Positions 880-31,744 are shown, counted from the stretch's first letter. The stretch: DNA of 32,000 nt from Candidatus Nanoclepta minutus (GCA_003568775.1 MWMI01000002.1:67161-99160), one strand, 5' to 3'. Notes: generated by a model from the letters alone, not told the origin. Program-made: numbers and translations.

Positions 880-989
880 GCCGCCGTAGCTCAGGGGTTA
901 GAGCGCCTGGCTCATAACGGAAGTTATGAGCGATGATCGGTGATTAGTGGGAAACCAGGAGGTCGGGGGTTCAAATCCCCCCGGCGGCA
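880..989 (+). tRNA. tRNA with CAU anticodon (elongator Met or Ile2) containing a 37-nt intron at the canonical 37/38 site
   Basis: Hand-folded cloverleaf: GCCGCCG/CGGCGGC acceptor, GCTC/GAGC D stem, CCTGG/CCAGG anticodon stem, loop CT-CAT-A|intron|A, variable AGGTC, T arm GGGGG-TTCAAAT-CCCCC, discriminator A. G1-C72 argues against an archaeal initiator (A1-U72). Confidence 0.9.
917..953 (+). other. tRNA intron (37 nt) with a BHB-like splice motif
   Basis: CUCA (911..914) can pair with UGGG (948..951) as a 4-bp helix. It is flanked by 3-nt bulges UAA (915..917) and AAA (952..954) that contain the inferred splice sites. Confidence 0.7.
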
Positions 990-21360: not shown

Positions 21361-21792
21361 ATGAAGGGACAAGGCTTACCTTTTAGTACCATTGTCCTAG
21401 CAATAATATCCGTACTGATTCTAGTCTTAATAGTATTTTTTGTAACTGGAGGTTTTAGCAGGATATTTCCAGCAACAACACAATATATAGTAACCGATAT
21501 ACAAACTGCAAGGACAAAATGTCAGCAACTTCTAGCAGATGCTCAGCTAAGACTTAGTGCCTCTACAAATCCTAATAGCGATTTTAAACAAACAGAGTAT
21601 TGTAAAGTTCAATTTAACATAAGTAGCATAAGTAAAGAGGCTTTAAAATGCTTCTCCCCAGAGATCGGGGTATATGCAAACTTCCGTATTACCACACTAT
21701 TCGGAGAAGTTTACCGTTGTTACACAATACCATCATCAAAAACAACTGAAGGCTGTACATGTGAGAAGGAAGTGGAGGATCACCTACCTTAA
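21361..21792 (+). CDS. Cys-rich protein with a class III (prepilin-like) signal peptide
   Basis: 143 aa. MKG|QGLPFSTIVLAIISVLILVLIVFFV has a short basic N-terminus, a small residue, then a hydrophobic stretch of about 20 aa. Six Cys in the mature part. Confidence 0.55.
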   Translation: MKGQGLPFSTIVLAIISVLILVLIVFFVTGGFSRIFPATTQYIVTDIQTARTKCQQLLADAQLRLSASTNPNSDFKQTEYCKVQFNISSISKEALKCFSPEIGVYANFRITTLFGEVYRCYTIPSSKTTEGCTCEKEVEDHLP

Positions 21793-21870
21793 GCGGATCA
21801 AATACCCAACCAGGCAGATCATCTCCCGCAAACCCGGCTACATAACCGTCCGCCATCGACAAGTTCCTAA
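21793..21870. other. GC-rich island (42/78 G+C by hand count), strongly C-skewed on the plus strand; candidate structured RNA on the minus strand or a read-through tail
   Basis: Composition contrasts sharply with the roughly 30% background. The segment is in frame with the upstream ORF through a TAA, and a TTTATAA box lies on the minus strand about 24 nt upstream of the G-rich start. Confidence 0.25.
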
Positions 21871-21900
21871 GGTTATAAAGGCTCTATCAAAATATTTTTT

Positions 21901-22593
21901 ATGATTCCTCTTTCTCAAAAAAAGAGAGAGATAGCAGACATCTTAGGCCTATCTTTAAAAGAACTGGATGATTTAGTAAAACAAAAAATAAATGAATATT
22001 ATGGATATATAGATGATAACACAGCTCTAATGATAATCTTGAAGGAGAACAACTTAGATCCTTCAATTTTGTTAAAAGTTAAAATTTCTGATTTAAGTTA
22101 TAGGATGAAAGTAAAAAGGATATTTGTAAAAATTGGAAAAGTCCTAATAAAAAAAGAAAATCTGCTTATTCTTGAAGTATACGATAGTACCGGAAAAGTA
22201 AAACTAATATTTAAAGGTAACTATAGGAAAATAGAGGACTTGCTAAAGGAAGGAAATGTTGTAGAGATAAGAAATGCAATAGTACTAAAAAACTTGACCT
22301 TAGCACTATTTATAAACAACGACATACTAGTAAGGGAAGTTAAGGATGAAAAAGTTTTAGAAGAATTTGAAAAGTTAGATTATGAAGGTTTAAGATATGT
22401 AACGGAATTCATCTGCAAAGTACTGGATAGAAAAGAGGATTCATATGAAGTTCTAACTGAAAGCTTTAATAGGATATATATTAAGACTAATGAGAGATTG
22501 GAAATAGGAAAAAATTACATAATAAAATGCTACCTAACCAAACCCTTAACCCTCATTAACTATAAGTTACTTGAATCCTATGATCTTAGCTAA
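21901..22593 (+). CDS. OB-fold ssDNA-binding protein, RPA/SSB-like (tentative)
   Basis: 230 aa. The N-terminal helical segment ending ...DDNTALMIILKENNLD resembles the conserved N-terminus of archaeal RPA-type proteins (...EEGAAxLVAKELGV), followed by a beta-rich region. Confidence 0.45.
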   Translation: MIPLSQKKREIADILGLSLKELDDLVKQKINEYYGYIDDNTALMIILKENNLDPSILLKVKISDLSYRMKVKRIFVKIGKVLIKKENLLILEVYDSTGKVKLIFKGNYRKIEDLLKEGNVVEIRNAIVLKNLTLALFINNDILVREVKDEKVLEEFEKLDYEGLRYVTEFICKVLDRKEDSYEVLTESFNRIYIKTNERLEIGKNYIIKCYLTKPLTLINYKLLESYDLS

Positions 22594-24405
22594 TTCTTCA
22601 GGTGAGTAATAATATAACCTCAAATACTCTGCAATCCTCCTATAATTCCTTATCCTATTGTTGTATAAATACTCCAAAACCTTTATCTTAAAGTCTAGGT
22701 TTGCCTTAAGCTCTTCAAAAGTCATATTATGGAACTCTGCAATTTTCTTTAGTTTATAACTATCATACAAAACGAATCCATCCGTTTTAGGATCCCAACT
22801 AGAAACCATGGTCTTTAACACTTTAGCTCTCTTATGATCATACCTTATAATTTCGTATATCTTATCTATCCTTCTAACGTATTTTCCCTTATATCTTGCC
22901 CTCCTAAGGAAAACCACCGCATCTAGGATCTCAATTAAGAATGGAGGTAAACTTATAGGTGGAGAAATTAACCTATCTACCAAACCTTCAAAGCTTTCAG
23001 CATGAATGGTACCCATACCAGCATGACCTGTAGCCATTGCCTGGAAGAGTATGAAGGCTTCCTGTCCTCTAACTTCTCCAACTATTATATAATCTGGTCT
23101 TTGCCTTAAAGATGCTTTTAATAGATCGTATAATGTTACCTCACCATACCTCTGCGGACCGAAACCTGGCCTAGCTACTTCCTGCAGCCAGTTAGGATGA
23201 GGTAACATAAGCTCTGGAGTATCCTCAATTGAAACTATCTTTTTCTCTGGCTTTATAAAAAGAGAAATAGCGTTCAATAGTGATGTCTTACCAGATGCTG
23301 TACCACCCGCTACCAATACCGATTTCTCTTCCTCAATTAAGGTCCATAGGTAAGCTAATATCCTAAAATCTGCAGTACCATAATTCAATAGATCTATAGG
23401 GGTAAAAGGATCCTGTGTGAACTTTCTTACTGTAAAAGAAGATCCTTTCCTCGATATCTCTTTTCCATAGGTTATCTGGACTCTTGAACCATCTGGCAAT
23501 GCTGCATCTAGTAATGGAGAAGCTATAGATATATATCTTCCAGTCCTTATTGCTAATTTTATAACAAAATTATCCAATTCTTCCTCGTCTTCGAAAGTAA
23601 TATTAGTCTTTATCTCCCCAATCAACGGGTTCCTATGGAATATAAATATAGGTATATTAACACCGTTGCAGGAGATATCCTCTATATAAATATCCCTCAT
23701 CAGTACATCTATCTTACCATAACCGATAGTATCCCTCAAGATATAGTATAAGATATATGGCTCTGCTTCCTTCCTTACATTTATCCTTCTAAGCTTCCAT
23801 ATTTCTCTAGATTTCTTTATTATATAATTCCTCACAAATTCCTTATCTCTAACTTCTAGGTACGGAATATCTATTTTTCTCTCTATTTCCTTTAAAGTTA
23901 AAGATACTATTTCCCTTTCCTTTTCTTCAAGCCTGGGCTCGATTACACTATATATGAATTCTCTATTTTCAGGATCCCAGTCTATTCTGGCTTTTGCCAT
24001 CTCATATATTCTTCCATCTATTTCCTCTTTTGTAACAACATATTCCATCTCTACATCTTTTCCACCCTTTCCGTATAGATAGAGGAAGAACTTCAGTTTT
24101 TCCTCATCCGATATACCTCTCTCCTTTATAGAACTCAAAGGAAATGCACCTTTTACCCTTTTTTTCTTCTTTTTTTTCTTAGGAATTACAGTACTAATTG
24201 TAAGATTCTGAATAGTTGGAAAGACAGGTACTATAGCTTGAGGGGGATAGTATAACTGTTTATTGCTTAAGTTTTCGACTGGTTTTACTTCTATAGCTTC
24301 CTTTTTCTCCTTACCACGGAGTTTATTTAACTTTTTTCTAATAATGAACTTTCTTTTTTCCTTTTCTGCCAATCTCCTAATAATAAGGTCTATAAAATCT
24401 TCCAT
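22567..24405 (-). CDS. type IV pilus/archaellum-family secretion ATPase (FlaI/PilB/VirB11 superfamily) with a basic N-terminal extension of about 115 aa
   Basis: 612 aa. Walker A VAGGTASGKTS, Asp box, Walker B PDYIIVGEVRG, His box ATGHAGMGTIHA. The N-terminal extension contains KKKKKKKR. Confidence 0.9.
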   Translation of the reverse strand: MEDFIDLIIRRLAEKEKRKFIIRKKLNKLRGKEKKEAIEVKPVENLSNKQLYYPPQAIVPVFPTIQNLTISTVIPKKKKKKKRVKGAFPLSSIKERGISDEEKLKFFLYLYGKGGKDVEMEYVVTKEEIDGRIYEMAKARIDWDPENREFIYSVIEPRLEEKEREIVSLTLKEIERKIDIPYLEVRDKEFVRNYIIKKSREIWKLRRINVRKEAEPYILYYILRDTIGYGKIDVLMRDIYIEDISCNGVNIPIFIFHRNPLIGEIKTNITFEDEEELDNFVIKLAIRTGRYISIASPLLDAALPDGSRVQITYGKEISRKGSSFTVRKFTQDPFTPIDLLNYGTADFRILAYLWTLIEEEKSVLVAGGTASGKTSLLNAISLFIKPEKKIVSIEDTPELMLPHPNWLQEVARPGFGPQRYGEVTLYDLLKASLRQRPDYIIVGEVRGQEAFILFQAMATGHAGMGTIHAESFEGLVDRLISPPISLPPFLIEILDAVVFLRRARYKGKYVRRIDKIYEIIRYDHKRAKVLKTMVSSWDPKTDGFVLYDSYKLKKIAEFHNMTFEELKANLDFKIKVLEYLYNNRIRNYRRIAEYLRLYYYSPEELAKIIGFK

Positions 24406-24450
24406 ATAATAAATTTTAGTTTATTTCTACAATTAAAAACTTTTGAGAGA

Positions 24451-24834
24451 CTATGGATAGAAAGTTAGATTGCTCGGGTAACTATATAAAAAGAAACTAC
24501 CTGTAGAAGTTAAATATGTATACTTTGAGAAAGGTCCCTCTGATAAGTTCAGAAAGTTTACCTTACTTCCAAAGGTAACATAGACTATATCCCCTTTAAC
24601 ATCTATATAACCAATTCCAACTATCCTCGGTTCAGAAACTACGTAGCAATACATCCTACCCAAGTATAGATTACCTAAGGCTATGCAGAAAACTACGTTG
24701 TTCCTAATATAGTTCCCTAGCAGAGTGTCCGAATAAAGATAAAGAGGAAAATTAGAAAATAGATTAGTTAAAAAGTAATATACAAAAAATAAGATCAAAG
24801 TTATTAATACTATCTCTAACGCTCTAGATGGCAT
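24451..24834 (-). CDS. small prepilin-like protein (class III signal peptide)
   Basis: 127 aa. MPSRA|LEIVLITLILFFVYYFL, with NxS/T sequons. Its start directly abuts the stop of the upstream gene (TAGATG). Confidence 0.5.
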   Translation of the reverse strand: MPSRALEIVLITLILFFVYYFLTNLFSNFPLYLYSDTLLGNYIRNNVVFCIALGNLYLGRMYCYVVSEPRIVGIGYIDVKGDIVYVTFGSKVNFLNLSEGPFSKYTYLTSTGSFFLYSYPSNLTFYP

Positions 24835-25662
24835 CTATGATGATATACTAATATCTACATATATCTCCCTTACAAGGTTATTACTACATACAGTAGAATT
24901 ATATGAGTTATCATAATATCTCCTATATGAAATAACTACTGGTATTTTTGTGGTTATCTGTGTAGCTGAAACACCATATGGAGATAACCTTATCCAAAAA
25001 CACTGACCGTTTTCCATGTTCACTATGGGTCTACAAGTTATCTCATATGATACCTCTCCACCAAGCTGAAGGGCATTTATGATACAGGGAGGAGATGTTC
25101 TATAATAGCCTGTCGGGTATCTAGGTAAGAACCTTAAATGAGTTCCGTTATAGATTATATCGAACACGTAATCCGATGTTATAACGTTATTTAAATTTCC
25201 TAAAGGAAGATCTACACTCTTATTAGATATTTCATCGATTATTCTAAAGCTTCCTGTACTTATAGTAATGTTTATATGGCTTCTATCACTACATAACTTT
25301 CCTGAATATGAAATGGTAAAGGTATCATTTGGACAGTATGTATACTCATCATAGTTCACAGGAACTTTTACTATTGAAGAATAATATTGTATCGGTATTT
25401 TTATTCTAAGTTGAATTAAATCTGGATCTATCTCAAAATAAGAGTTCTGTATATCTAACTGAAATGTTGATACTCCAAAATCTAAGGCTGTTTTTGAGAT
25501 CCTATCTGCAAAATCCGATAACTTTGATTCTACAGAAGATAATGTATTCCTAACATAGGACTTCTGTACCAGGGGAACAACATAGTTATACACGGTCAAG
25601 GCAACTCCCAAAACTACTGCACCTAAGAGAACGTACCCAACAATTTGCTCTTGAGATCTCAT
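24835..25662 (-). CDS. large prepilin-like / pilus-associated extracellular protein
   Basis: 275 aa. MRS|QEQIVGYVLLGAVVLGVALTVY N-terminus, six Cys, five NxS/T sequons. Confidence 0.5.
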   Translation of the reverse strand: MRSQEQIVGYVLLGAVVLGVALTVYNYVVPLVQKSYVRNTLSSVESKLSDFADRISKTALDFGVSTFQLDIQNSYFEIDPDLIQLRIKIPIQYYSSIVKVPVNYDEYTYCPNDTFTISYSGKLCSDRSHINITISTGSFRIIDEISNKSVDLPLGNLNNVITSDYVFDIIYNGTHLRFLPRYPTGYYRTSPPCIINALQLGGEVSYEITCRPIVNMENGQCFWIRLSPYGVSATQITTKIPVVISYRRYYDNSYNSTVCSNNLVREIYVDISISS

Positions 25663-25695
25663 ATAATTACATAAAATTAAAAAATTAATAAGTTT

Positions 25696-25701
25696 AAAAA
25701 A
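25696..25701 (-). terminator. oligo-T tract (T6 on the minus strand) directly after the pilin A stop codon
   Basis: Plus-strand AAAAAA abuts the TAG stop (complement of 25702..25704). Archaeal termination typically occurs at oligo-T. Confidence 0.35.
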
Positions 25702-26181
25702 CTACGTAAACGTAACCTCTTTTGCCACAGCACCCATAGTAACTCTCAATACGTAATAGTTTAGTGTAATATTACCCACATTAGAGCAGGTAAAATTAAC
25801 TATTGTAGAAGATCCTACATTCAAAGTTCCTGATAAAGTAGTGTTTGTTGTACAAATGCTCTGCTTCCATACACCTACTTCAGGTGCAGTCCTATTATAA
25901 ACCGATACTGAAGCGTTTACCTGTGTTTTACTAAAATCTATATTAACAGAACCTGTATTCCTTATACTAACAGTAAAAATAAGATCAGAACCTGAAGGAG
26001 TGGTTCCAACAGGTGCTACGGAGAAATCGAACGCTGTTGATTGAAGTATTTGCTGTCCAGTTTGAGCAGTTAGCTGTGTTAACATACCACTCATCCATGT
26101 ATACATCAATGCAGCTATACCTACTGTCATGATGATTAAAAGTATTGTTGCAATAATCGGTGAAACTGATCTTTTCATCAT
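25702..26181 (-). CDS. archaeal type IV pilin (Pilin_N-type N-terminus), paralog A
   Basis: 159 aa. MMKRS|VSPIIATILLIIMTVGIAAL matches the archaeal pilin N-terminal pattern R(A/G/S)VSPVIxxILxxAITV. Two conserved Cys and several NxS/T sequons. Confidence 0.8.
   Translation of the reverse strand: MMKRSVSPIIATILLIIMTVGIAALMYTWMSGMLTQLTAQTGQQILQSTAFDFSVAPVGTTPSGSDLIFTVSIRNTGSVNIDFSKTQVNASVSVYNRTAPEVGVWKQSICTTNTTLSGTLNVGSSTIVNFTCSNVGNITLNYYVLRVTMGAVAKEVTFT
26011..26181 (-). repeat. direct repeat copy 1 (171 nt, 5' end of pilin A)
   Basis: Codons 1-57 encode the same amino acids as 26478..26648. By eye there are about 6-7 nucleotide differences, and all are synonymous. Confidence 0.9.
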
Positions 26182-26648
26182 TATCTAAAGATAACTTCTT
26201 TTGAAGTTGAGCCTATGGTAACTCTTAAAACATAATAATATCTGGATACATCTATATTAACACCACAGGTAAAAATAAACGATTTTGATTCTCCAACTGA
26301 TAGAGTACCGGTATTTATAGTTGAACAAGAAGACTGATTTACAACACCTGCTGCTGGATTCAACCTATCATAAACGGTTACTGCAGCTATAGCATTTGTT
26401 TTACTAAAATCTATATTAACAGCTCCTGTATTCCTTATACTTACAGAGAAAGTATTAGTACCATTGGGAGATGCAATAGGCGCAACAGAGAAATCGAATG
26501 CTGTTGATTGAAGTATTTGCTGTCCAGTTTGAGCAGTTAGCTGTGTTAGCATACCACTCATCCATGTATACATCAATGCAGCTATACCTACTGTCATGAT
26601 GATTAAGAGTATTGTTGCAATAATCGGTGAAACTGATCTTTTCATCAT
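26181..26648 (-). CDS. archaeal type IV pilin (Pilin_N-type N-terminus), paralog B
   Basis: 155 aa. The first 57 aa are identical to paralog A. Its stop TAA shares one nucleotide with the ATG of paralog A (TAATG). Confidence 0.8.
   Translation of the reverse strand: MMKRSVSPIIATILLIIMTVGIAALMYTWMSGMLTQLTAQTGQQILQSTAFDFSVAPIASPNGTNTFSVSIRNTGAVNIDFSKTNAIAAVTVYDRLNPAAGVVNQSSCSTINTGTLSVGESKSFIFTCGVNIDVSRYYYVLRVTIGSTSKEVIFR
26478..26648 (-). repeat. direct repeat copy 2 (171 nt, 5' end of pilin B)
   Basis: See copy 1. The copies are 467 nt apart, start to start. Confidence 0.9.
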
Positions 26649-26669
26649 TATAGATTATAATCTCATTAT

Positions 26670-26678
26670 TATTTAAAA
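26670..26678 (-). promoter_or_regulatory. TATA box TTTTAAATA upstream of pilin B (predicts a leaderless or near-leaderless mRNA)
   Basis: The minus strand reads AATTTTAAATAATAATGAGATTATAATCTATA-ATG. The box spans -30..-22 relative to the A of the ATG and has the same 9-mer as the tRNA(CAU) promoter. Confidence 0.45.
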
Positions 26679-27164
26679 TTATTGTATCCTCTTTATACCC
26701 TGTATTGGTGGCGGAGGTATAGGTCTCCTAATCGTTCTCTCTTCCTTCTTCTCTTTTTCTTCCTTTAACTTTTCTATTTCAGATCTTAAATTATCCAAAG
26801 CTTCCAATATTCTTTTATTCAAATTTTCCATTTCTTCAACTTTCTTCTCAATATTTCCTGATTTAAGAGATGGTTTACCTTCAATATAAAATAGTGCAGC
26901 TTCTTTAAATATGTTTAACAATTCTTTTAAATCTTTACTCAACCCATTTATTACAACTATAAGTTCTGATATCTTAGCATGTAATTCTAAGTTGCTTTTG
27001 ATTAAACTATTTATAATATCTTTATAGATCTTATCCGAACCCTCTGAATTTTCTTCCGATTCAACTGGCTCTTTCTTTAATTCGTTTATCGATTCCTTAA
27101 CATCATAAATCTCTTTTACTATTTTCTCCAATACTTTGGATAGATCATCCCTATTCTGACCCAT
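26679..27164 (-). CDS. hypothetical coiled-coil protein with a Pro-rich basic C-terminus (first gene of the pilin cluster)
   Basis: 161 aa, E/K/L-rich with heptad patterns, ending RTIRRPIPPPPIQGIKRIQ. No TM segment and no family recognised. Confidence 0.45.
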   Translation of the reverse strand: MGQNRDDLSKVLEKIVKEIYDVKESINELKKEPVESEENSEGSDKIYKDIINSLIKSNLELHAKISELIVVINGLSKDLKELLNIFKEAALFYIEGKPSLKSGNIEKKVEEMENLNKRILEALDNLRSEIEKLKEEKEKKEERTIRRPIPPPPIQGIKRIQ

Positions 27165-27218: not shown

Positions 27219-28859
27219 CTATTCTATTTCAGTTTCTTCCCCAGTTTCTTCTTTTCCACCCTTTCCTTCCTCTCTCTTTATAGCTGCTATTACATCGTCT
27301 ATCTTCAATATCATTATTGCTGCCTCTGTAGCAGACTTTATTGCCTGTATAGTAATATCTGCTGGCTCTATAACTCCTATTTCCCACATATCAGCAACCT
27401 TTCCCTCAACAGCATCAATTCCGTACCATACCTTTCCGTCCTCATGTGCAGCTCTTAGCTCTGACATAGCTTCTATAGTATCCATACCTGCATTCTCTGC
27501 TAAAGCCGATGGTACAGCCTCTAATGCATCTGCAAATGCTAGCATAGCCATCTGTATCTTTGATGGATGCTTCTTGGCTTCCTTTCTAATCTTCTCTGCT
27601 AATTCTATTTCTATAGCTCCTCCCCCTGCTATTACTTTCCTTCTTCTTATAACATTGGCAACATCCTTTATAGCATCGTTTATTGATCTTTCAGCTTCCT
27701 CAGCTACATGTTCCGATCCTGCCCTAATTAATATGGTTACTGCCTTTGGATTCTTACATCCCATTACAAATATCATGTTTTCATCAGCAACCTTTCTCTC
27801 TTCTACAATCTCTGCATAACCTAGATCACTTTGGGTTAGTTCCTCTATGGAAGATACAATCTTTGCACCAGTAGCTCTAGAGAGCTTATCCATATCAGAC
27901 TTCTTTACCCTTCTTACAGCGAGTATTCCATATTTTGCTAGGTAATATGCTGCTACATCATCTATTCCCTTTTGTACAAATACTACATTAGCTCCTACTT
28001 CTTTTATTTTTTCTACCATCTTCTTCAATATCTCTTGCTCCTTCTTTAAAAATGCTTCTAACTGATCTGGTGAAGTTATATTTATTCTAGCATCTGTTTC
28101 TGTTTTTTTAACTTCAATTGCTTCCCCTATTAGTGCTATCTTTGCATTTCTTACTATTTTTGGCATACCAGAATGCACTCTCTCCTTATCTATTACTATA
28201 CCATCTATCAACTCTGTTTCCTCCATTCCCCCTCCTATCTTCTTCTCAACTTTTATAGCATCTAAATCTACAATTATCTTGCCGGCCTCGGTATAAGTTA
28301 CCTTCTTAACCGCATCTACAACTATCTTAGCAATCTTATCACCATATATTCCAGCAACCTTAGAGGCCAATGCTGCCTTAGCAACTTTAGTTAGAGTTTC
28401 TTCATCCTCTAAGTTTATTTCTTTAGATAATCCAATTACATGCCTTTCAGCTAATTCTGCAGCCCTCCTATATCCCTCTATTATTACAGTTGCATGGATA
28501 TTTCTATCTAATAGCTCTCCAGCTTTCTTCAATAGCTCTCCAGTAAGTACTACAGACCTCTTAGTTCCATCCCCAACTTCTTTATCCAAAGTCTTTGCTA
28601 CTTCTATTATTAACTTTGCTGCTGGATGTTCTACATGCATCTCATCTAGTATTGTTGCTCCATCGTTAGTTACTGTAATGTCTCCTAACTCATCTACTAG
28701 CATCTTATCCATTCCTCTGGGTCCTAGAGAAGTTTTTAGGATCTCTCCCACTATCACCGCTGCTGTTATATTCGACCTTACAGCCTCTCTTCCAACCGCT
28801 CTCGCATATTTTTCAGGTAATAATACGATAGGATAAACTGTTCTTCCTTCCTCAGCCAT
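27219..28859 (-). CDS. ths: thermosome subunit (group II chaperonin)
   Basis: 546 aa. SLGPRGMDKMLVD, VTNDGATIL, GDGTKRSVVL, VAGGGAIEIE and an acidic/Gly tail are diagnostic of the CCT/thermosome family. Confidence 0.97.
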   Translation of the reverse strand: MAEEGRTVYPIVLLPEKYARAVGREAVRSNITAAVIVGEILKTSLGPRGMDKMLVDELGDITVTNDGATILDEMHVEHPAAKLIIEVAKTLDKEVGDGTKRSVVLTGELLKKAGELLDRNIHATVIIEGYRRAAELAERHVIGLSKEINLEDEETLTKVAKAALASKVAGIYGDKIAKIVVDAVKKVTYTEAGKIIVDLDAIKVEKKIGGGMEETELIDGIVIDKERVHSGMPKIVRNAKIALIGEAIEVKKTETDARINITSPDQLEAFLKKEQEILKKMVEKIKEVGANVVFVQKGIDDVAAYYLAKYGILAVRRVKKSDMDKLSRATGAKIVSSIEELTQSDLGYAEIVEERKVADENMIFVMGCKNPKAVTILIRAGSEHVAEEAERSINDAIKDVANVIRRRKVIAGGGAIEIELAEKIRKEAKKHPSKIQMAMLAFADALEAVPSALAENAGMDTIEAMSELRAAHEDGKVWYGIDAVEGKVADMWEIGVIEPADITIQAIKSATEAAIMILKIDDVIAAIKREEGKGGKEETGEETEIE

Positions 28860-30758: not shown

Positions 30759-31209
30759 GGCAATATTAAACTATCAGTTTGGGGATAAGGTTGGAGACAG
30801 GATAGTTGAGAAGTATAAAGATAGTATAAAAGTTGAAGTTAGCAAGAATACTGGGAGAATAAGGAGGGTTTATATAGATGACAAACTCTTTGGCACTATA
30901 GAACCAACAACAGGTTTTATAATACCATCCTTTTTTGGAGGAGAAATAATTAAGGGATTCTTAGAGTATCCAAAATATAGAGTTGTAGTTTCTGATGATT
31001 CATTACCTTTCATAAAAGAAGGAAAATCTGTATTCTGTAAATTCGTTGTTGAAATCGATGATAGTATATTACCAGAGGACATAGTATTCGTAGTGGATGG
31101 TAAGGATAATCTAATTGCGGTTGGGATAGCAAGGTTGTCTGCATCAGAAATAAAGAGCTTTAATAGGGGAGTTGCAGTAAAAATAAAGCATGTTGGAGGT
31201 AATATATAA
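30739..31209 (+). CDS. PUA-domain RNA-binding protein (pre-PUA + PUA)
   Basis: 156 aa. The C-terminal DGKDNLIAVGIARLSASEIKSFNRGVAVKIKHV is a typical PUA core. Confidence 0.75.
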   Translation: MELSIVRAILNYQFGDKVGDRIVEKYKDSIKVEVSKNTGRIRRVYIDDKLFGTIEPTTGFIIPSFFGGEIIKGFLEYPKYRVVVSDDSLPFIKEGKSVFCKFVVEIDDSILPEDIVFVVDGKDNLIAVGIARLSASEIKSFNRGVAVKIKHVGGNI

Positions 31210-31744
31210 AAAGATAATTCCTAAGGATTACTTAGATATAATAAACAGTAAAGAACTTTATAGAAGATTATTCAAACTATCCATATTCTTATTCAACCTA
31301 TCAATATATTCCATTCCACTTTTATTGTTCCATTTAGGCTTAATAAAGATACCAATAGAAGTCTTATCTTCCTATACAGACATAATAGGAAGGCTATTGA
31401 TCATGGAAAAGGAAATACTGTCTAACAATATAGTAGTTAAAAGTTTTGTATTCCAAATAGATCAGGAATGTATGGGAATAAAGTCAATATTGGGCTTTTT
31501 TGCTATAATGATGTCTACCCCAACTAAAGAAATAAAAAGGAGATTTCTATACTTTCTAATATTTTCTCCAATAGTGTTCTCTCTAAACATTCTAAGGATC
31601 CTATCTACAGTTTATGGCTTCTATTTTTATAACTTAGATCCAGGCTTCTTCCACAACTTCCTATGGGAAGTTCTAAACGTTATTGCTATAGGTAGTTTAT
31701 GGGCGGTCTTTTATATCAAAAATAAAGATAATACCTTATTTTAA
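31190..31744 (+). CDS. small exosortase/archaeosortase-family membrane protein (putative)
   Basis: 184 aa, polytopic. Ordered Cys...Arg...His candidates in family-like contexts: IDQECMGIKSIL, FSLNILRILSTVY, FFHNFLWEVLN. Confidence 0.55.
   Translation: MLEVIYKKIIPKDYLDIINSKELYRRLFKLSIFLFNLSIYSIPLLLFHLGLIKIPIEVLSSYTDIIGRLLIMEKEILSNNIVVKSFVFQIDQECMGIKSILGFFAIMMSTPTKEIKRRFLYFLIFSPIVFSLNILRILSTVYGFYFYNLDPGFFHNFLWEVLNVIAIGSLWAVFYIKNKDNTLF

Follow-up and report, generated by a model that had tools for sequence, protein, structure and literature searches.

The minus-strand pilus array of Candidatus Nanoclepta minutus is probably the pilin-and-motor half of an archaeal type IV pilus system

Candidatus Nanoclepta minutus belongs to the Nanoarchaeota, a group of obligate ectosymbionts, and in its genome a stretch of 32,000 nucleotides (GCA_003568775.1 MWMI01000002.1:67161-99160; hereafter the window) carries a minus-strand gene array that an earlier note had read as a type IV pilus-like locus with no platform protein or prepilin peptidase nearby. 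The locus raises the question of what kind of filament machine these genes encode, and of where the remaining parts of that machine reside. The central claim was borne out, in that the window holds a FlaI/PilB-family ATPase together with genuine pilins, and the positions, strands and lengths given for seven open reading frames of note all proved correct. We put at about 0.8 the probability that the array supplies the pilins and the motor of a type IV pilus system whose platform is encoded in trans; the machine itself is an ordinary archaeal type IV pilus and no new kind.

The motor gene (22567..24405, minus strand) encodes a 612-aa type IV filament assembly ATPase of the T2SSE/VirB11 family, whose orthologues Nps_01175 (N. 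acidilobi) and Nst1_088 are assigned to arCOG01817. The protein matches Pfam T2SSE (PF00437) with an E-value of 7.5e-35 (120.7 bits, cut-off 24.9), and its catalytic motifs are complete, as had been proposed, comprising Walker A GGTASGKT (367), Asp box IVSIEDTPE (390), Walker B YIIVGEVRG (439) and His box GHAGMGTIH (460). The Lys-rich basic N-terminal extension of ~115-140 aa is likewise present, with 31 K/R in residues 1-120, and alignments to solved homologues start at residue 145 (afGspE) or 181 (FlaI). The best NCBIfam match is FlaI (NF058587) at 397.2 bits, below the equivalog cut-off of 550, and among PDB entries afGspE (2oap, 387 bits) scores above S. acidocaldarius FlaI (285 bits). The sequence is 100% identical to that of a protein recorded for Candidatus Nanoclepta minutus. 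The ATPase is kept across N. equitans-like vent genomes through to Nanoclepta; a contig scan with it as query found Nanopusillus sp. and Nst1, and the matches listed included neither Nanoclepta nor its paralogous loci. On the published tree of these ATPases (Makarova, Koonin and Albers, 2016), gi 490715254, to which Nst1_088 was mapped by GI offset (a mapping validated by its correct prediction of Nst1_260 as an ATPase), carries the label Clade_2 and is placed next to the archaellum clade, with a support of 0.74.

The tandem proteins of 155 aa (pilin B, 26181..26648) and 159 aa (pilin A, 25702..26181), both encoded on the minus strand, are true archaeal type IV pilins. Both exceed the cut-off of TIGR02537 (25.2 bits against 20), and pilin A, which carries 5 N-glycosylation sequons, has the same family matches as its paralogue. 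The two proteins are 70% identical, with residues 1-57 the same in both; the 5' 178 nt of their genes are 96% identical, and the start codon of pilin A overlaps the stop codon of pilin B by 1 nt. Residues 6-31 of pilin B, the major-pilin candidate, align from residue 1 of mature Iho670, the subunit of the Ignicoccus hospitalis adhesion fibres (5KYH, 3J1R), and the 26 mature N-terminal residues are near-identical (VSPVIATLLLILIAVAAAVLLYTWVSG in the pilin versus VSPIIATILLIIMTVGIAALMYTWMSG in Iho670), which fixes the likely cleavage site, predicted in pilin B as MMKRS↓VSPIIAT. This likeness ends at the N-terminal helix, since Iho670 is a 303-aa protein with a far larger head. The AlphaFold model of pilin B (pLDDT 73) predicts a helix at residues 8-48 followed by a 7-strand beta sandwich, and its best solved relative is the flagellar-like pilus of P. 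calidifontis (8fk7; E 1.2e-8 over residues 3-93), which has a subunit of similar size (144 aa) and shares with pilin B a helix running into a polar segment, one disulfide and N-glycosylation. The P. calidifontis locus differs in having a KaiC-like ATPase, of which the Nanoclepta locus has none, and the ATPase clades are different. Profile comparison with hhalign relates the window pilins to DPANN pilins that match the archaellin domain PF01917 with a probability of 99%. A Pfam search at E up to 1 returned no PF01917 match in the window pilins themselves, a distinction of degree only, because their DPANN homologues do match that family.

These affinities bear on whether the locus could be the "non-traditional arl cluster" behind the lophotrichous filaments on detached cells, with pilins A and B as archaellins, the coiled-coil protein as an ArlX/ArlCDE analogue and the 275- and 127-aa proteins as ArlG/ArlF analogues. 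Archaella have been reported on Nanoclepta, the ATPase is FlaI-like (397 bits) with an Nst1 orthologue placed just outside the archaellum clade, the pilins have an archaellin-like N-terminal helix, PF01917-matching homologues and a "flagellar-like" best solved relative, and the gene order (coiled-coil, filament genes, two anchored proteins, ATPase) broadly recalls arlB-arlX-arlG-arlF-(arlH)-arlI. However, the ATPase stays under the FlaI equivalog cut-off and is nearer to afGspE, the window pilins have no PF01917 match of their own, and the cluster contains no ArlH/KaiC, ArlJ, ArlF or ArlG. The absence of archaellum accessory genes noted earlier was thus upheld: ArlF and ArlG profiles gave only matches with E-values of 0.005-0.16, on pilin N-termini, and no KaiC-family Pfam match was obtained in the syntenic locus L002. 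Sister genomes, moreover, hold a separate archaellum-clade ATPase beside FlaH and FlaD/E, with archaellins and FlaJ elsewhere; in N. acidilobi, FlaH adjoins an ATPase other than Nps_01175, and N. equitans has the orthologous ATPase and no archaellum. An archaellum is therefore a very improbable identity for this locus.

Downstream of the pilins lies a gene (24835..25662, minus strand) for a 275-aa protein with the N-terminus MRS↓Q, which is rich in Cys and in N-glycosylation sequons, as the earlier note had remarked (6 and 5, respectively). Its AlphaFold model, built on a 9-sequence alignment (pLDDT 86.8, pTM 0.79), predicts a helix at residues 2-60 followed by an all-beta domain, a lollipop shape like that of a pilin that gives the protein a minor-pilin-like appearance; a Foldseek search returned no solved structure with a similar fold. 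The family is small (17 matches among 1.84 billion representatives), and its six Cys and many other positions are invariant at 44-68% identity. Comparison by hhalign with the 201-208-aa gene in the same position in DPANN loci gave a probability of 98% and an E-value of 2.7e-14, and the family profile also matches proteins of 263-660 aa that are encoded next to related ATPases at loci of Asgard, Thermoplasmata and MGIII archaea. These latter proteins fit DUF7289 (PF23960; L068 42.3, L025 27.8 and P0145 36.2 bits; cut-off 27), to which the 275-aa protein has no direct match in a Pfam search. Sequence comparison thus suggests a distant relationship to DUF7289, the likeness being transitive and restricted to the N-terminal ~60-110 residues.

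The 275-aa gene directly abuts, through a TAGATG junction confirmed in the sequence, the gene for a 127-aa N-terminally anchored membrane protein (24451..24834, minus strand), with a single hydrophobic segment at residues 1-29. Its family is confined to Nanopusillaceae, where it always lies directly upstream of the ATPase gene; a homologue search returned only the protein itself, and profile comparison detected no homology to the 139-aa gene in the same position in DPANN loci. A further prepilin-like protein, of 143 aa (21361..21792, plus strand), contains the six Cys previously counted and one sequon, and begins with MKG↓QGLPFSTIVLAII. It has no family match in Pfam or NCBIfam, and no gene of the DPANN locus gave a significant match when compared, as a profile, with the 127- and 143-aa families. 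Its gene belongs to a separate transcription unit and stands outside the minus-strand array, because it lies on the opposite strand and is co-directional with an RPA-like gene; its position is constant in every Nanopusillaceae locus, across which the whole region is syntenic. A link of the 143-aa protein to the pilus system is tentative. The genes flanking the locus are RPA-like, Mre11, Rad50 and HerA genes.

The earlier note had credited five of these proteins with class III signals. In the Nanoclepta genome all five N-termini do show [KR][SAG] followed by a single hydrophobic stretch, and none of the five fits the strict FlaFind pattern. The count of five is nevertheless too generous, and we regard two of the signals as firm and two as likely. 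The [KR][GSAT]↓Q motif and long hydrophobic stretch are found in 5/5 orthologues of the 143-aa protein. The signal of the 127-aa protein is doubtful, because its orthologues in L003, L009 and L010 have no basic residue (MPVNAIEIV...).

The first gene of the array (26679..27164, minus strand) encodes a 161-aa cytoplasmic, alpha-helical/coiled-coil protein with a Pro-rich tail, no TM segment and no Cys, for which Pfam matches are weak and of coiled-coil type. Orthologues occupy the same position in L002, L003, L005, L009, L010, L090 and L007 (profile E-values of 1e-40 to 1e-62), and the coiled-coil and pilin genes share 4 nt in L007 and are separated by 2 nt in L005. The coiled-coil gene was seen only at loci with an adjacent thermosome gene and is absent from L006; the N. 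acidilobi orthologue, Nps_01160, is detected in the proteome. The coiled-coil protein probably belongs to the pilus system. The adjacent thermosome gene had also prompted us to consider it as a prefoldin, a candidate set aside since no prefoldin family match was found.

The gene set had been called unusual, a description that does not hold, as Nanopusillaceae and Woesearchaeota-type DPANN genomes share the same order. L002, L003, L009 and L010 keep the order thermosome, coiled-coil, [pilins], 275-aa, 127-aa and ATPase, and L005 and L090 retain it with 190-193-aa homologues of the 275-aa gene and with genes of 67-115 aa replacing the 127-aa one. In two DPANN loci, L006 (Woesearchaeota CP070803) and L007 (an ENA 625-kb contig), the order is pilin, 201 aa, pilin, 139 aa, ATPase, T2SSF and T2SSF, after which come four more genes; at least three of these encode N-terminal hydrophobic anchors. 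In L007, thermosome and coiled-coil genes precede this series. The pilin(s), the 201-208-aa minor pilin, the small anchored protein and the ATPase follow one another as they do in Nanoclepta, whereas the two T2SSF and the four further genes are missing from the Nanoclepta neighbourhood. The Nanoclepta array thus corresponds to the upstream half of a DPANN-wide locus that continues past the ATPase directly into two tadC genes.

Comparison across these loci also bears on two further readings. One retains the same machine and assigns it to cell-cell DNA exchange, as an Ups-like pilus, instead of host adhesion. UpsA (NF046073) is the best named NCBIfam match of the pilins (best E 2e-15), and DNA-repair genes flank the locus, but the UpsA scores of 52.7 and 57.0 bits fall far short of the cut-off of 130 and no UpsX-like gene is found. 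The DNA-repair neighbours are, in addition, not kept in L005, L006 and L007, so that their proximity appears to be a matter of lineage synteny, the genome being compact, and a DNA-exchange function is highly unlikely. The other reading is that of a decaying remnant that has lost its platform and no longer builds a filament. Pilins A and B are missing from the corresponding locus in Nst1, Nanopusillus and L003, L002 has a 64-aa fragment resembling the N-terminus of the 275-aa protein, and the ATPase and the 280-aa and 126-aa orthologues went undetected in the N. acidilobi proteome. Shotgun proteomes, however, routinely miss low-abundance membrane proteins. Decay is also at odds with the intactness of every ORF, with the complete catalytic motifs, with the invariant Cys and other positions of the 275-aa family and with the retention of the ATPase from N. 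equitans-like vent genomes to Nanoclepta, and we find it scarcely credible.

Returning to the platform that an in-trans pilus system would need, we found no T2SSF/TadC-like ORF in the 32 kb, the best HMM match having an E-value of 0.36 with filters off, in agreement with the earlier note. A T2SSF ORF lies within 10 kb in 73/80 related archaeal loci, and two do so in 66/80, versus 0/8 distinct nanoarchaeal loci, a directly observed, lineage-specific loss of ATPase-tadC adjacency. Nanoarchaeal genomes scatter operons, which is why the platform genes are not near the array; FlaI and FlaJ, for instance, are unlinked in both N. acidilobi and Nst1. Nanopusillaceae have been described as holding two type IV pilus systems, an archaellum and four FlaJ/TadC homologues (Jarett, 2018). 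The complete gene table of N. acidilobi lists five ATPases, and Nps_01175 alone of the type IV pilus (non-archaellum) ATPases lacks a platform gene beside it; the archaellum ATPase has none either, its FlaJ (Nps_02340) being unlinked. The same genome contains an unpartnered TadC pair, Nps_01915/01920, with single-TM proteins on its flanks. Because the orthologous ATPase is unpartnered and an orphan tadC pair is available in N. acidilobi, the platform is most likely encoded in trans, and the complementarity of the two, together with the DPANN layout, suggests that this ATPase pairs with the orphan TadC proteins.

It had been proposed that the platform is either elsewhere or replaced, and it is the former option that these data favour. 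The latter would make the locus a self-contained compact system, in which the ATPase dispenses with a TadC platform or relies on one not yet recognised, for which the 127-aa or 275-aa protein would be a candidate. The absence of T2SSF within 10 kb of any of the eight nanoarchaeal loci, the lineage-specific 127-aa protein always directly upstream of the ATPase, and the pairing of other archaeal ATPases with non-TadC proteins of 4-5 TM (Makarova, 2016) agree with such an arrangement. Yet the 127- and 275-aa proteins, with a single TM each, resemble no platform, the ATPase of the orthologous DPANN locus is directly followed by two canonical tadC genes, and the closest complete genome, that of N. 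acidilobi, offers an unpartnered pair, all of which leaves a compact system improbable.

The window also lacks a prepilin peptidase, again as reported, the only polytopic proteins in it being a VTT/DedA protein and an exosortase-like one (Exosortase_EpsH). The latter was considered as a stand-in peptidase and rejected, with nothing in support. The N. acidilobi gene table contains no arCOG02298, arCOG02300, arCOG07367 or A24 entry, and no A24 peptidase was found in two nanoarchaea (Makarova, 2016). Two further, linked readings, which we regard as unlikely, are worth stating. First, Nanopusillaceae might process their class III signal proteins, the present pilins among them, with a peptidase that is not recognisable as A24, because no A24 peptidase is annotated in N. 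acidilobi, Nst1 or N. equitans and yet filaments are visible on Nanoclepta cells. Second, the DPANN-wide system might be the closest living sister of the archaellum, in view of its archaellin-like pilins and of an ATPase that branches just outside the FlaI clade.

Among the known systems closest to the type IV pilus read here are the euryarchaeal/DPANN clade 2 pili (Makarova, Koonin and Albers, 2016), including Haloferax volcanii PilB3/PilC3 and PilA, which likewise have an arCOG01817 ATPase. Both have small PilA-type major pilins in tandem, a FlaFind-type minor pilin of variable length (DUF7289-like here, arCOG02911 in Makarova, 2016) and, at related loci, usually two tadC genes (66/80 here). 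In clade 2 pili, the pilins may be in trans to the ATPase/TadC module, while Nanoclepta splits the ATPase from the platform. The conserved coiled-coil protein, the lineage-specific 127-aa protein and the Lys-rich ATPase extension are found in Nanoclepta beyond what clade 2 pili have.

We propose that pilins A and B, and probably also the 275-aa and 143-aa proteins, enter the membrane by means of their N-terminal hydrophobic helix, and that a class III signal peptidase would then cut the short basic leader at KRS↓VSP in the pilins and at [KR][GSAT]↓Q in the others. The hexameric ATPase would dock on a TadC-type platform and extract the helices from the membrane to build a helical fibre, whose Ig-like heads would be stabilised by the disulfide and N-glycans. 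The DUF7289-like 275-aa protein may serve as a minor pilin, either as an assembly primer or as a tip/adhesin subunit. The platform would act in trans, most likely as a tadC pair that lost its place beside the ATPase through a split of the ancestral DPANN locus in the nanoarchaeal lineage. The inferred parts of this scheme are the identity of the platform, the tasks of the coiled-coil and 127-aa proteins, and cleavage in proteins other than the pilins. Attachment to the host Zestosphaera is a plausible function.

Nanoarchaeal surface filaments are prime candidates for the structures with which these cells find and hold their hosts. The present analysis gives a catalogued nanoarchaeal ATPase a concrete pilin set, consisting of two major pilins and a DUF7289-like minor pilin, and this set, with its predicted cleavage site, provides specific targets for filament proteomics and cryo-EM. 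It also carries a caution, in that tools based on co-localisation will call nanoarchaeal type IV filament systems incomplete, the ATPase half being encoded away from the platform half. The one real gap to which the locus points is the class III signal peptidase missing in Nanopusillaceae. Were the DPANN-wide system indeed the closest sister of the archaellum, it would constitute a second "flagellar-like" type IV pilus, relevant to the origin of the archaellum.

The window has a G+C content of about 32% and carries genes that are typical archaeal housekeeping genes. All open reading frames listed in the earlier note were found at their coordinates, and inspection of the sequence confirmed the TAGATG junction, the catalytic motifs and Lys-rich N-terminal extension of the ATPase, and the Cys and sequon counts. 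The reading of the locus as a type IV pilus locus held for the kind of system but not for its supposed unusualness, since the gene set proved typical of the lineage. In a hot-spring metagenome, two Nanopusillaceae MAGs, Nanopusillus sp. and Nanobsidianus stetteri Nst1, the array side follows the order thermosome, coiled-coil protein, zero to two pilins, 275–280 aa protein, 126–128 aa protein and ATPase; beyond the ATPase lie convergent RPA-like and 126–143 aa genes, followed by genes for an RNA-binding protein, Mre11 and Rad50. Elsewhere in the window, Rfam identifies a complete 110 nt tRNA at 880–989 (+) (63.7 bits) for which ARAGORN makes no call, and which probably contains an intron. Intron-containing tRNAs are common in nanoarchaea.

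The 612 aa ATPase (22567–24405, minus strand) matches Pfam T2SSE with an E-value of 7.5e-35. Its top NCBIfam model is archaellum FlaI, at 397 bits against an equivalog cut-off of 550, and among solved structures it scores higher with Archaeoglobus afGspE (2OAP, 387 bits) than with Sulfolobus FlaI (285 bits). The stretch N-terminal to the aligned part is an add-on, because these structural alignments start only at residue 145 or 181. This extension differs between relatives, with a Lys-rich form in the Nanopusillaceae and an Ala/Pro-rich one in a vent nanoarchaeote, a variability in line with a 2026 preprint that describes subsystem-specific N-domains. The Ala/Pro-rich rather than Lys-rich form was seen in a hydrothermal vent metagenome contig (L089), which encodes a solitary N. 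equitans-like ATPase orthologue with no pilins or tadC nearby, flanked by RadA and CDC48 genes that both contain inteins.

Relationships to the archaellum were examined through Nst1_088, the N. stetteri orthologue of the window ATPase, which was equated with gi 490715254 via GI offsets that also rightly predicted Nst1_260 to be an ATPase. In the published tree, gi 490715254 is labelled clade 2 and clusters with the N. equitans ATPase and one from Methanocaldococcus fervens, the three together being sister to the FlaI clade as a whole at a support of 0.74 (Makarova et al., 2016). Archaellin-like pilins combined with an ATPase sister to the FlaI clade make the system 'flagellar-like'. Identity with the archaellum itself is disfavoured by the absence of ArlH, ArlJ, ArlF and ArlG, by an ATPase score under the FlaI equivalog cut-off, by the distinct archaellum gene set of sister genomes, and by an orthologue in N. 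equitans, an organism without an archaellum.

Pilins A (25702–26181) and B (26181–26648), both on the minus strand, pass TIGR02537 with 25.2 bits (cut-off 20) and match UpsA weakly. Their residues 6–31 align with residues 1–26 of the mature Iho670 fibre protein, which supports a predicted cleavage at KRS|VSP. The AlphaFold model of the pilin (pLDDT 73) comprises a helix at residues 8–48 and a seven-strand sandwich, for which Foldseek returned only generic Ig-like folds, FlaF included. The first 57 residues of the two pilins are identical, and the 5' 178 nt of their genes (26007–26184 and 26474–26651) are 96% identical versus only ~72% for the 3' parts. The 5' identity points to recent duplication or gene conversion, and its juxtaposition with diverged 3' parts suggests either gene conversion or selection holding the N-terminal helix constant.

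The 275 aa protein (BXU00_01720; 24835–25662, minus strand) belongs to a tiny family: a search of 1.84 billion representatives gave 17 hits, of which nine were strong. Six Cys are invariant in the family. Modelled with AlphaFold from a nine-sequence alignment (pLDDT 86.8, pTM 0.79), it shows the 'lollipop' shape of a pilin, in which an N-terminal helix of 59 residues carries an all-beta head; a Foldseek search with this model found no similar solved structure. Comparison with hhalign linked the family to the 201–208 aa gene found at the equivalent place in DPANN loci (98% probability, E-value 2.7e-14). The family profile also reaches 263–660 aa proteins that adjoin related ATPases in genomes of Asgard archaea, Thermoplasmata and MGIII; these proteins match Pfam DUF7289 and, weakly, Pilin_N. 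Clade-2 systems are characterized by a 'variable-length signature minor pilin' (Makarova et al., 2016), and the 275 aa protein and its DUF7289-matching relatives are consistent with that component; the protein is a putative equivalent of arCOG02911.

A 64 aa open reading frame between the pilin and 275 aa genes of locus L002 (8307–8501, +) resembles residues 20–45 of the 275 aa protein and is probably the leftover of a duplicated minor-pilin gene. In a Thermoplasmatales locus (L038, 6753–8507, +), the ATPase-adjacent 584 aa DUF7289-type pilin-like protein carries Hint/intein-like and PKD domains, a strange combination for a pilin. On a contig from a MAG labelled 'Proteobacteria bacterium' (JAJPHT010000022.1), an archaeal-type ATPase with 44% identity is accompanied by a DUF7289-like pilin and by tadC genes; the contig is probably mis-binned.

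Five proteins of the locus had been credited with class III signals. The assignment is likely for the 143 aa protein (21361–21792, plus strand), whose family retains a well-conserved [KR][GSAT]|Q motif ahead of a long hydrophobic stretch. It is doubtful for the 127 aa protein (BXU00_01715; 24451–24834, minus strand), because its orthologues in loci L003, L009 and L010 have no basic residue; this protein is restricted to the Nanopusillaceae and has a single, N-terminal hydrophobic segment. A Gln at +1 is common to the 275 aa family, the 143 aa family and the anchored proteins of DPANN loci. The 143 aa gene lies, together with the RPA-like gene, on the strand opposite to the array, and its fixed position may be mere regional synteny. 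The coiled-coil protein (161 aa; 26679–27164, minus strand) is conserved in the first position of the array. In loci L007 and L005 its coding sequence overlaps or directly adjoins that of the pilin. The gene was seen only in loci with an adjacent thermosome gene, and in N. acidilobi it encodes the sole locus product detected in the proteome. The thermosome gene (27219–28859, minus strand) lies directly upstream of the array, an adjacency also found in L002, L003, L005, L007, L009, L010 and L090. These loci range from a Woesearchaeota-type genome to Nanoarchaeota, an unexpectedly deep conservation of gene order.

As the earlier note had reported, the window encodes no platform protein: with HMMER filters off, no T2SSF-like open reading frame was found (best E-value 0.36), and polytopic proteins are limited to a VTT/DedA protein and an exosortase/archaeosortase-like protein. 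The latter (31190–31744, +; 184 aa; PF09721 32.5 bits, cut-off 25.7) is found at the same place, some nine genes away from the ATPase, in every Nanopusillaceae locus as well as in N. acidilobi (Nps_01130, arCOG04471). In Woesearchaeota-type genomes, which share the upstream half, the ATPase gene directly precedes two T2SSF genes (of about 290 and 387 aa) and, 3' of these, four more genes, at least three encoding N-terminal hydrophobic anchors. A local HMM search of related loci from GTDB species representatives detected at least one T2SSF open reading frame within 10 kb in 73 of 80 loci (exactly two in 66 of the 73); in four of the seven loci lacking one, the contig stops ~1 kb past the ATPase. 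In contrast, none of the eight distinct nanoarchaeal loci has one within 10 kb, indicating that loss of ATPase-platform adjacency is specific to the nanoarchaeal lineage.

The complete N. acidilobi gene table lists five type IV filament ATPases (Wurch et al., 2016, Supplementary Data 1), and yet contains no prepilin peptidase arCOG (02298, 02300, 07367) and no A24 annotation. The host Acidilobus has an A24 peptidase. The absence has also been noted in two nanoarchaea (Makarova et al., 2016). Nanoclepta bears filaments despite this absence in its relatives, and a divergent or different prepilin peptidase is possible. Candidates in N. acidilobi include several 'uncharacterized membrane proteins' with 5 TM segments, such as Nps_01785.

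The same table places the archaellum ATPase next to FlaH and FlaD/E, two further ATPases next to TadC genes, and a fourth (arCOG01818) with an arCOG01814 platform, leaving the orthologue of the window ATPase (Nps_01175) without an adjacent platform (Wurch et al., 2016). It also holds an unpartnered TadC pair, Nps_01915 (5 TM) and Nps_01920 (4 TM), flanked by single-TM proteins and with no ATPase nearby; FlaJ is similarly far from FlaI (Wurch et al., 2016). Yellowstone Nanoarchaeota present a matching picture (Jarett et al., 2018). Splitting of a DPANN-type locus would leave an ATPase half and a two-tadC half, each orphaned, as seen in N. acidilobi, and on this evidence we infer that the window-type ATPase is paired with the orphan TadC pair. 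The Nanoclepta locus is a type IV pilus system, most likely split, that is typical of its lineage and of a type already known.
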